Positions 3,181 to 4,322 of a stretch of DNA of 43,368 nt are shown here, piece after piece (position 1 is the first letter of the stretch; every line of letters begins with the position of its first letter). Source of the DNA: Deltaproteobacteria bacterium (lineage in GTDB: Bacteria; CG2-30-53-67); contig JAADIO010000002.1 in assembly GCA_013151235.1 (NCBI GenBank), forward strand, positions 62,001 through 105,368, given 5' to 3'. The notes under the pieces are model-generated. The model saw only the letters and a list, made by a program, of their open reading frames with translations, did no database searches and was not told the DNA's origin. The translations under genes were made by a program, and so were the position numbers.

Positions 3181-3266
3181 GGAGGAGTGGCCGAGTGGTT
3201 GAAGGCGGCGGTCTTGAAAACCGTTGTGCGAAAGCACCGTGGGTTCGAATCCTACCTCCTCCGCCA
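3181..3266 (+). tRNA. tRNA-Ser(TGA)
   Basis: GGAGGAG/CTCCTCC acceptor stem, anticodon arm GCGGT-CT-TGA-AA-ACCGT, long variable arm, GGTTCGAATCC, G-CCA end. Confidence 0.97.
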
Positions 3267-3474
3267 GGTTTTTGCGAAGCAAAAACCTATGGCAATTCGC
3301 GATGCGAATTGCAGAACAACAAAAATAAGAAGAGGTAGGATGAGAAACCGGGTTCGACCCCAAGATACCTTCAGAGGAGCCGCCGAAGGCGGCAAGGATA
3401 AGATCTTAAGCGGGACGCGCTGCGTCCTGAAGCGGAGCGGAAGGGCGGAAAGCGCAATCCTACCTCCTCCGCCA
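3267..3474 (+). repeat. tRNA-linked element 1 (208 bp) ending in a 19-bp duplicate of the tRNA-Ser(TGA) 3' end
   Basis: AATCCTACCTCCTCCGCCA at 3248-3266 and 3456-3474; interior homologous to elements 2 and 3. Confidence 0.9.
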
Positions 3475-3547
3475 TTTTGTCGCTTCGCGACAAAATAATC
3501 AATTTGCAAAGCAAATTGTAATATAATTTTACTTCGTAAAATTATCA

Positions 3548-3641
3548 GGAGAGATGGCCGAGTCGGCTGAAGGCGCTCGCCTGCTAAGCGAGTGTAGGGC
3601 TTAACACCCTACCGAGGGTTCGAATCCCTCTCTCTCCGCCA
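3548..3641 (+). tRNA. tRNA-Ser(GCT)
   Basis: GGAGAGA/TCTCTCC acceptor stem, anticodon arm CTCGC-CT-GCT-AA-GCGAG, long variable arm, G-CCA end. Confidence 0.97.
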
Positions 3642-3847
3642 TGTTTTCGTTGCACGAAAACACCAAGTAGTTTGCTTTGCAAATTGCGATAGCCATAAAG
3701 AGAGAGGGTGAGAAGCCTCGCTGGTTCGATCCCAAGATACCTTAATGTGATGGCCGTCGAAGACGGCAAGGATAGATCTAAAGCGGGACGCGCGACACCC
3801 CGTAGCGAAGCGTAGGGGTGGAAAGCGCAATCCCTCTCTCTCCGCCA
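3642..3847 (+). repeat. tRNA-linked element 2 (206 bp) ending in a 19-bp duplicate of the tRNA-Ser(GCT) 3' end
   Basis: AATCCCTCTCTCTCCGCCA at 3623-3641 and 3829-3847; the following 21-nt hairpin is also repeated with 2 changes (3642-3662 vs 3848-3868). Confidence 0.9.
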
Positions 3848-3934
3848 TATTTTCGTTGTACGAAAACATCGAGCAATTCGCTAAGCGGATTGTGATCACT
3901 ATAATGATAGAAAGAGAAAGAGACGAAAACCCGA

Positions 3935-4022
3935 GGAGAGGTGACCGAGAGGCCGAAGGTGCACGACTGGAAATCGTGTGTAGTGAAAGCTACCGGGGGT
4001 TCGAATCCCCCCCTCTCCGCCA
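3935..4022 (+). tRNA. tRNA-Ser(GGA)
   Basis: GGAGAGG/CCTCTCC acceptor stem, anticodon arm CACGA-CT-GGA-AA-TCGTG, long variable arm, G-CCA end. Confidence 0.97.
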
Positions 4023-4322
4023 TGTTGAAAAGTTTGGCGGATCATTGGGAGATTACATCGAACCGGATCGTGGTACGGGGGGGAATGAGAAGCCCCGTTG
4101 GGGTTCGACCCCAAGACACATCCAGAGGAGCCGCCGTAGGCGGCAAGGATAGATCTAAAGCGGGGCACGCGACGCCCCGGAGCGAAGCGGAGGGGTGGAA
4201 AGCGTGAATCCCCCCCTCTCCGCCATGTTGAAAAGTTTGGCGGATCATTGGGAGATTACATCGAACCGGATCGTGGTGCGGGGGGGAATGAGAAGCCCCG
4301 TTGGGGTTCGACCCCAAGATAC
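4023..4322 (+). repeat. tRNA-linked element 3 (203-bp unit, 4023-4225) plus a partial second copy (4226-4322)
   Basis: 4003-4119 and 4206-4322 form a 117-bp direct repeat with 2 mismatches, beginning with the tRNA 3' end GAATCCCCCCCTCTCCGCCA. Confidence 0.92.

Follow-up and report, generated by a model that had tools for sequence, protein, structure and literature searches.

RtT-type repeat units behind tRNA-Ser genes of a Nitrospirota genome and their discrete, probably mobile core

RtT repeats behind the tyrosine tRNA genes of Escherichia coli were described decades ago and, to our knowledge, have never been explained. What such units are is the question raised by a stretch of 43,368 nucleotides (nt) from a genome catalogued as Deltaproteobacteria bacterium (GenBank assembly GCA_013151235.1, contig JAADIO010000002.1, positions 62,001–105,368 of the forward strand; hereafter, the window), in which three units of 203–208 bp, E1 (3267–3474), E2 (3642–3847) and E3 (4023–4225), stand one behind each of the first three tRNA-Ser genes of a cluster. 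An original prediction, made from the letters of the window alone, had described them as homologous gene-less units with common core motifs, each ending in a copy of its own tRNA 3′ end and each reading as a T-loop split by an insert. Our analysis bears this description out: E1–E3 align with 80–85% column identity, the tail (AATCC...CCA) is an exact copy of the last 18–19 bases of the tRNA in all three, GGTTCGA is followed by an insert of 99–100 nt and then by ATCC...CCA, and no open reading frame (ORF) is common to the three. The units are RtT-type tRNA-trailer units, a distant variant of the rtT/rttR kind, which have the anatomical features of that family (Rfam RF00391) and fail its Rfam score. 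Antisense pairing within the unit is already part of the RtT family model; what is added here is a precise grammar in common with E. coli and a discrete, probably mobile core.

Likeness to the RtT repeats of Escherichia coli

The lead towards RtT was followed with covariance models in both directions. Each of the three units is matched end to end (model positions 1–130) by the Rfam RtT model once thresholds are relaxed, the scores being 30.5, 27.6 and 25.9 bits. A model built from E1–E3 only (R1), in turn, matches 4/4 E. coli RtT units with 27.7–31.3 bits and aligns their central GC hairpin (P1), the next match in that 2-kb locus reaching 7.2 bits. The RtT consensus (...GgGaaGGAUGAGAAcCUUCGaccaAGGUuCGA...AAUCCuuCcCccaCCACCA) contains UGAGAA and GGUuCGA, and in its structure line the tail is the pairing partner of the first block. 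In the E. coli K-12 locus, the spacer between tyrT and tyrV holds one RtT unit and the DNA behind tyrV another three; each of the four consists of GGGGAAGGAT, GAGAA, GCTTCGACCAAGGTTCGA, an insert of approximately 68 nt and ATCCTTCCCCCACCACCA, with an antisense strand that likewise spans tRNA positions 59–68 and an insert that starts right after GGTTCGA.

The layout is therefore the same in both organisms. Units lie directly 3′ of a tRNA gene on its strand, in tandem and with partial copies, and end in the last 18–19 nt of the tRNA including CCA; a 10-bp helix with an upstream strand antisense to positions 59–68 closes the unit; UGAGAA comes next, followed by a GAAsC..GGUUC hairpin; and the insert, which begins right after GGUUCGA and stops before AUCC, carries a central GC hairpin with a triloop in the same place. 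The two differ in host (tRNA-Ser and Nitrospirota here, tRNA-Tyr and Enterobacteria there) and in the insert, which is approximately 100 nt here versus 68 nt, mostly unalignable in sequence and found here also outside tRNA contexts. The tpr-like small ORF of E. coli has no counterpart common to E1–E3.

Relatives of RtT in Gammaproteobacteria that adjoin tRNAs other than tRNA-Tyr are described in passages of two papers: expressed RtT-family RNAs lie beside tRNA-Asn and tRNA-Lys in Actinobacillus pleuropneumoniae (Arrc20/Arrc21; PMC4986893), and RtT is among the expressed conserved RNAs of Xanthomonas (PMC3300014). Compared by description only, these differ from the units here in passing the Rfam threshold, and their annotations, as far as those passages go, carry neither a split T-loop nor insert behaviour. 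Our literature search, in which the tyrT originals (1978–1991) were represented at second hand only and other papers in part, found no account of the split T-loop, of the antisense rule for positions 59–68 or of a mobile RtT core.

The host genes and the parts of the units are as follows, with the basis of each assignment in brackets.

3181–3266, + strand: tRNA-Ser(tga), host gene of E1 (ARAGORN; Rfam tRNA, 60.8 bits)
3267–3331, + strand: E1 spacer containing two small hairpins, GGTTTTTGCGAAGCAAAAACC and GCAATTCGCGATGCGAATTGC (sequence, inverted repeats)
3332–3341, + strand: E1 helix I 5′ strand, antisense to tRNA positions 59–68 (pairs with 3457–3466 in the minimum-free-energy fold)
3342–3357, + strand: E1 junction, consisting of GAGAA, ACC and a sense copy of the T-stem 5′ strand and T-loop, GGGTTCGA (alignment; order as in E. 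coli RtT)
3358–3456, + strand: E1 module, 99 nt, consisting of CCCCAAGATACC, the P1 hairpin, AAGCGGG, P2/P3 and GGAAAGCGCA (alignment, pair counts, ends)
3457–3474, + strand: E1 tail, identical to the final 18 nt of tRNA-Ser(tga), forming the helix I 3′ strand plus GCCA (repeat comparison)
3548–3641, + strand: tRNA-Ser(gct), host gene of E2 (ARAGORN; Rfam tRNA)
3699–3729, + strand: E2 helix I 5′ strand (3699–3708), TGAGAA (3709–3714), linker and GGTTCGA (3723–3729) (sequence, alignment, fold)
3730–3829, + strand: E2 module, 100 nt (alignment, pair counts)
3830–3847, + strand: E2 tail, identical to the final 18 nt of tRNA-Ser(gct) (repeat comparison)
3848–3934, + strand: beginning of a further period behind E2, then a decayed antisense start (3829–3911 versus 3623–3705, 80% identity; repeat family D5)
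3935–4022, + strand: tRNA-Ser(gga), host gene of E3 (ARAGORN; Rfam tRNA)
4077–4108, + strand: E3 helix I 5′ strand (4077–4086), GAGAA, helix II (GAAGCCCC/GGGGTTC) and GGTTCGA (4102–4108) (sequence, alignment, fold)
4109–4207, + strand: E3 module, 99 nt (alignment, pair counts)
4208–4225, + strand: E3 tail, identical to the final 18 nt of tRNA-Ser(gga) (repeat comparison)
4226–4322, + strand: partial fourth unit with spacer, antisense strand, GGTTCGA and the first approximately 14 nt of the module, where it ends (4206–4322 versus 4003–4119, 98% identity; weak R1 match at 4273–4362)

Repeat comparison gives tandem periods of 203–208 bp with partial last copies, and the 98% and 80% repeats behind the units indicate short tandem arrays with broken last copies.

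The antisense strand and its host tRNA

The segment around TGAGAA had been predicted to track the reverse complement of the cognate tRNA, and it does so in each unit. The E1 antisense strand GAGGTAGGAT (3332–3341), spanning tRNA positions 59–68, is complementary to 3457–3466 at 10/10 positions, that of E2 (AGAGAGAGGG, 3699–3708) to 3832–3841 at 10/10, and that of E3 (GGGGGGGAAT, 4077–4086) has nine complementary bases and one bulged A; as ten fixed-position matches have a chance of approximately 1e-6 per unit, the complementarity is far above chance in all three. In all three single-sequence folds (minimum free energy of −57 to −72 kcal/mol; z of −2.4, −3.1 and −3.3), this strand pairs with the tail copy as helix I and closes the unit. 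Each unit is modelled as a three-way junction of helix I, helix II (a small hairpin of GAAsCC with GGUUC) and a module arm of approximately 100 nt, and helix I in the modelled structure leaves the ...GCCA of the tRNA at the 3′ end, thereby imitating a stacked T-stem and acceptor stem.

A cis RNA module that pairs with the pre-tRNA had been one of the two predicted functions. Such pairing is not needed: in 3/3 folds the antisense segment serves as 5′ strand of the helix that closes its own unit, and the Rfam RtT consensus structure already holds this helix, an outcome that the original prediction had itself named as counting against it; because the strand pairs in cis with the tail copy, a closing stem is the simplest reading, rather than an antisense RNA against the tRNA. 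The stretch does complement the real tRNA as well as the copy, which would suit a cis-antisense regulator whose 10 nt, paired to the T-arm and the 3′ acceptor strand of the pre-tRNA, govern how the pre-tRNA folds or is processed. We consider such a regulator extremely unlikely: the stretch has an identical partner in cis approximately 115 nt downstream, with which the Rfam model and all the folds close the unit, the module works with closing stems unrelated to the tRNA (see below), and the mature tRNA fold would presumably beat a 10-bp duplex.

R1 was also run against 41 genomes (the genome of the window is labelled G000, its relatives G001 and so on, and the loci fetched from them L007, L012 and so on). 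It matches nine, that is, its own genome and all eight other genomes of the same bacterial family, and none of the 32 outside, which include five genomes of the sister family. The three units score 168–177 bits in their own genome, accompanied by 11 weaker matches, and the fetched loci hold 59 matches at E ≤1e-4, 22 of them in serS/tRNA-Ser clusters and 37 dispersed. Units occur at the serS–tRNA-Ser cluster in every family genome whose cluster was read, and tRNA-linked units in this family stand only behind tRNA-Ser (tga, gct, gga and cga); one dispersed copy lies just upstream of tRNA-Arg(ccg) and is not built from that tRNA. A wider search for the junction pattern GGTTCGAYCMCAAGATWCC in one genome per species returned 21 stretches, with the module (by R1) in five from Nitrospirota only; the other 16, from many phyla, are at chance level.

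Across the nine genomes, the tail is identical to the upstream tRNA end in 13 of the 14 units that have a tRNA in the locus (three further units lack a tRNA inside the locus and stand outside this count). There are four tail types (CCTACCTCC, CCCTCTCTC, CCCCCCCTC and CCCTCCCTC), each with its own matching antisense strand, and a switch can be seen within the lineage: tRNA-Ser(gga) has CCCCCCC here and CCCTCCC in both G003 and G008, a change that the two strands of the unit have followed. The idea of a constant scaffold with a target-matched segment thus holds for four different tRNA-Ser tails. Co-variation with the adjacent tRNA was found among the four tRNA-Ser tails, and retargeting to other tRNAs is not supported here, as the tRNA-linked units read in this family stand behind tRNA-Ser only. 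Because the four tails are alike, spread among tRNA-Ser genes needs no programmable retargeting. Nor is TGAGAA invariant, as had been claimed; in a by-eye reading of 16 tRNA-linked units from nine genomes, 12 have TGAGA, one TGAGG, one TGCGA and two an unchanged TTCGA. The units that keep TTCGA suggest that the antisense strand begins as a faithful inverted duplicate of the T-arm.

The core as a separate module

An alignment of 59 copies delimits the core, which runs from YCMCAAGATWCC to RAAGCGYA and is usually 98–100 nt long (short forms, approximately 71–82 nt). It comprises the hairpin P1 and a helix P2 enclosing P3. In this alignment, whose fitting to the model favours the pairing figures, 91.4% of cells pair, versus 79.2% in shuffles and 34–42% with slid partners; pairing in P1, P2 and P3 reaches 97–98%, with both-side changes in 30 of 36 pairs. 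Among these related copies, P1–P3 show 22 G·T versus 7 A·C mismatches on the + strand, a hint that the + strand is the folded one. For 'helix 5', in which GCGGG of the module pairs with the 3′ flank, the model-fitted alignment gives 87% paired cells (G·T 18 versus A·C 3), and we draw no claim from it.

The same core recurs in other settings. In the units it sits exactly after the A of GGTTCGA, and in the dispersed elements it is enclosed by closing stems unrelated to the tRNA. Its own genome holds M1 elements, long dispersed hairpins with matching ends GTAACNNCTCAGGT / ACCTGAGNNGTTAC (for example, G000:C11:125630-125779, C27:345-495 and C64:94-165), in three nested states: a minimal hairpin of approximately 72 nt, a form of approximately 165 nt and a module-bearing form of approximately 240–270 nt. 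Of 14 that were read, six are empty (...CAACA|ACGCAGTCA...), seven are filled at that exact bar and one is a minimal hairpin. A second module type, ending in ...AAAAGTCA, follows TGAGA in five units (G001, G003, G006 and G008), and elsewhere TGAGA|AGCC is uninterrupted; L015 and L018 hold two modules in head-to-tail order; and, in G006, two full-length tRNA-Ser(cga) pseudo-copies, both decayed, are interrupted at the identical point of the T-loop. Filled and empty module sites show no target duplication. An A precedes the first base of the module in 58 of 64 pattern matches and follows the module in 52 of 64, counts in which some matches are false or truncated. Occurring nested, in tandem and in unrelated dispersed hairpins, the core is a discrete structured module, and it is probably mobile.

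Such clean inserts bear on the other predicted function, an attC-like mobile element. In its fuller form, this reading holds that the hairpin of antisense and sense tRNA sequence, in single-stranded DNA, is a recombination site in the manner of attC or IS200/IS605, where an unlinked recombinase or HUH enzyme would cut after GA on either arm and release small single-stranded circles, any RNA being a by-product. It is the main rival to the account preferred below and, in our judgement, unlikely. The module enters at A^A without target duplication, the TTCGA^ (sense arm) and TGAGA^ (antisense arm) sites of the tRNA hairpin are mirror images around the GA/GA internal loop, and a module hairpin lies approximately 21 nt from the left end, with the hairpin complex stopping 1–2 nt before the right end, all as a DNA-level element would have it; the G·T excess, by comparison, fits a single folded + strand, RNA or DNA alike. 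The genome has five Y1_Tnp (HUH) genes, but none has a module nearby (best match, 11.3 bits), and Y1_Tnp does not discriminate, being present in 34 of the 41 genomes, including 5/5 module-free genomes of the sister family. For E. coli, a preprint (10.1101/2024.07.17.603846) notes that 'mobilome' coverage across tyrT-rttR-tpr rises under stress and calls the mode of action unknown, which would agree with movement as DNA; no empty tRNA hairpin occurs in the nine genomes, and neither a TnpB nor, on the contig, an integrase was found. Of the predicted attC-like element, then, the behaviour of the core as a discrete insert without target duplication stands, and no circle, recombinase partner or empty tRNA hairpin was found to complete it.

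Other searches for a mobilising enzyme gave similar results. The original prediction had stated that the window encodes no recombinase; Phage_integrase has no match on the whole contig, its six matches in the genome all lying on other contigs. A scaffold for a TnpB omega-RNA was rejected, there being no Cas12f1-like_TNB match in the genome and no Rfam match at E ≤0.1 in five dispersed copies; an integron attC cassette was rejected as well, with no R''/R' cores (RYYYAAC...GTTRRRY) in the units and no integrase on the contig. Next to two dispersed copies stand ORFs that are unrelated (LeuA-like) or match no Pfam family. Just upstream of one dispersed copy lies a 407-amino-acid ORF without a Pfam family (L007:16-1239 = G000:C41:30929-32152). 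A separate, unrelated repeat of about 100–180 bp (query G000:C41:30516-30700) has more than 100 blastn matches on most contigs, often in 2–3 sub-blocks, and may be a REP-like partner of the Y1 HUH genes.

Known elements offer partial parallels. Non-autonomous IS200/IS605 elements and the REP/REPIN sequences associated with Y1 HUH enzymes have hairpin-bearing ends, a short fixed target motif, no target duplication and strand-specific folding. The module resembles them in its clean insertion by a short fixed motif, without target duplication, and in folding on one strand; it differs in that its two hairpins are dissimilar and that it has no linked transposase, TnpB, omega-RNA or Rfam match. At approximately 100 nt it is also smaller than described PATE elements. 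IS1397 inserts in REP loops and integron cassettes use attC, and the module is like both in using a folded palindrome rather than a plain sequence as target, and in gene-less cassettes and nesting; it is unlike them in having no GTTRRRY core, IntI, IS3-type transposase, gene or inverted terminal repeats.

Integration at tRNA genes classically leaves a duplicated tRNA 3′ end, and the split pseudo-copies of tRNA-Ser(cga) in G006 could likewise be debris of such events. That the units are scars left by integrases, that is, attL/attR leftovers and pseudo-tRNA fragments with no structure-dependent function, is nevertheless very improbable: the units are gene-less and only approximately 205 bp long, no integrase lies on the contig and no island was found, E. 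coli has the same layout and split point, covariation is strong, and the antisense strand has no place in an attachment (att) scar.

The unpaired motifs CAAGAT, AAGCGGGG and GNAAGCGTA are strongly conserved beside co-varying stems, which could instead point to a small RNA acting in trans or as a sponge, in which the processed unit would have its own cellular role (for example, through a tRNA-like end that binds a tRNA-binding protein). The presence of units at all the family's serS–tRNA-Ser clusters that were read would accord with such a role, as would the part in the stringent response or amino-acid starvation that PMC4986893 cites for RtT. We think this reading quite improbable, because units per tRNA range from 0 to 3 or more among close relatives, decayed and partial copies are present, and the module occurs in dispersed repeats (up to 35 matches in one genome), which a selfish element fits better than a dosed regulator.

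A proposed passenger of the tRNA operon and its surroundings

On balance, we think it somewhat more likely than not that transcription of the tRNA operon includes the unit, which is then trimmed out by way of its tRNA-like closing stem, and that arrays are held in step with the tRNA by unequal crossing-over. As the units lie on the tRNA strand and no terminator-like site was found on the + strand between 3181 and 4426, they are probably transcribed with the tRNA-Ser genes. The enzymes that process tRNA ends would then trim them out as stable RNAs of approximately 150 nt, as for E. coli rtT RNA, the release of which from the tyrT transcript is given, citing Bosl and Kersten 1991, in PMC4986893. 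Units would persist as harmless passengers of the tRNA operon, their arrays lengthening or shortening by unequal crossing-over between identical 18–19-nt tails, which would also keep each tail identical to its tRNA; the 5′ strand would keep pace with the tail, either because helix I is under selection or by template switches inside the palindrome. The module itself would be a separate mobile or exchangeable insert, which enters between two A residues at a hairpin tip or in an internal loop and duplicates no target sequence.

Several points limit this account and the kinship with RtT on which it draws. In an expression look-up of 24 sequencing runs, each holding a small share of the stretch and four of them compared in detail, contigs from RNA libraries cover the tRNA genes only, whereas the sole contigs to include the units are low-depth DNA contigs from two runs, a pattern that speaks neither for nor against transcription. 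The units lie below the RtT gathering score of 45 bits, the genome as a whole has no match above that cut-off, and part of the score is mere likeness to tRNA (the tRNA-Arg at 4345–4429 alone gives 19.9 bits). Beyond the tRNA-derived flanks, the likeness to E. coli consists of UGAGAA, one aligned hairpin and AAGCG, and the two may have converged on one design. A tRNA hairpin without the module (TGAGA, 3–16 nt, GTTCGAATCC) occurs in 0/9 genomes, so that a step in which the main module enters an existing tRNA hairpin stays hypothetical, and the sole insertion or deletion seen at a tRNA is that of a whole unit, E1 being absent behind tRNA-Ser(tga) in G005 with the flanking spacers retained. No mobilising enzyme turned up in the searches for TnpB, Y1_Tnp and integrase, and the first making of the antisense strand is left without an explanation.

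A broader idea, which we put forward tentatively and would not call likely, is that RtT repeats, in E. coli as well as here, are the tRNA-resident form of widespread structured mobile modules of approximately 70–100 nt, which would insert after GA/CA at the tip or internal loop of a palindrome, with no linked gene and no target duplication, the target-matched hairpin being built or kept from the 3′ end of the host tRNA. If this is true, RtT would represent a new kind of structure-guided mobile element in tRNA operons, moving via DNA or RNA. The locus in any case shows the RtT design in a distant phylum and behind another tRNA, makes its grammar precise (an antisense strand to positions 59–68, GA facing GA and an insert after A58) and shows the insert as a separable unit with filled and empty sites. 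The question of what RtT is becomes testable in terms of an RNase P-type processing mimic, an inserting enzyme, movement at the DNA versus the RNA level and the origin of the antisense strand. Such units can be mistaken for att sites or pseudo-tRNAs, and, given that many copies lie at contig ends, they break assemblies at tRNA clusters.

The cluster begins just behind serS and continues beyond the partial fourth unit with tRNA-Arg(acg) (4350–4426), a tadA-like frame, tRNA-Ser(cga) (5071–5159; both tRNAs by ARAGORN) and the large signal recognition particle (SRP) RNA (5149–5346; Rfam). The last two overlap, the Rfam match of the SRP RNA beginning 11 nt before the tRNA end (window 5071–5346). 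In G001, G002 and G006, RtT-like units lie between tRNA-Ser(cga) and the SRP RNA, and in G003 and G008 the units preceding the SRP RNA stand behind tRNA-Ser(gga); the SRP RNA is thus the end of the same tRNA cluster.

The spacers have features of their own. The E1-type spacer is also found behind tRNA-Ser(tga) in G005 (locus L012), there without a unit. Small hairpins of the form GCAATTCGC-NNN-GCGAATTGC occur in every spacer of the tRNA cluster (3292–3312, 3500–3518, 3671–3686, 3873–3892 and 5022–5042) and in relatives too, and may be processing sites. Elsewhere in the window, a cyclic di-GMP-I riboswitch match (13603–13679, − strand) is barely above threshold (36 versus 35 bits). The Rfam model of the Xanthomonas small RNA sX4 matches each tRNA-Ser together with approximately 80 nt of its trailer (3169–3343, 3930–4088 and 3533–3713), below threshold (28.6–44.1 versus 70 bits), and sX4 may itself be a tRNA-Ser-linked transcript.

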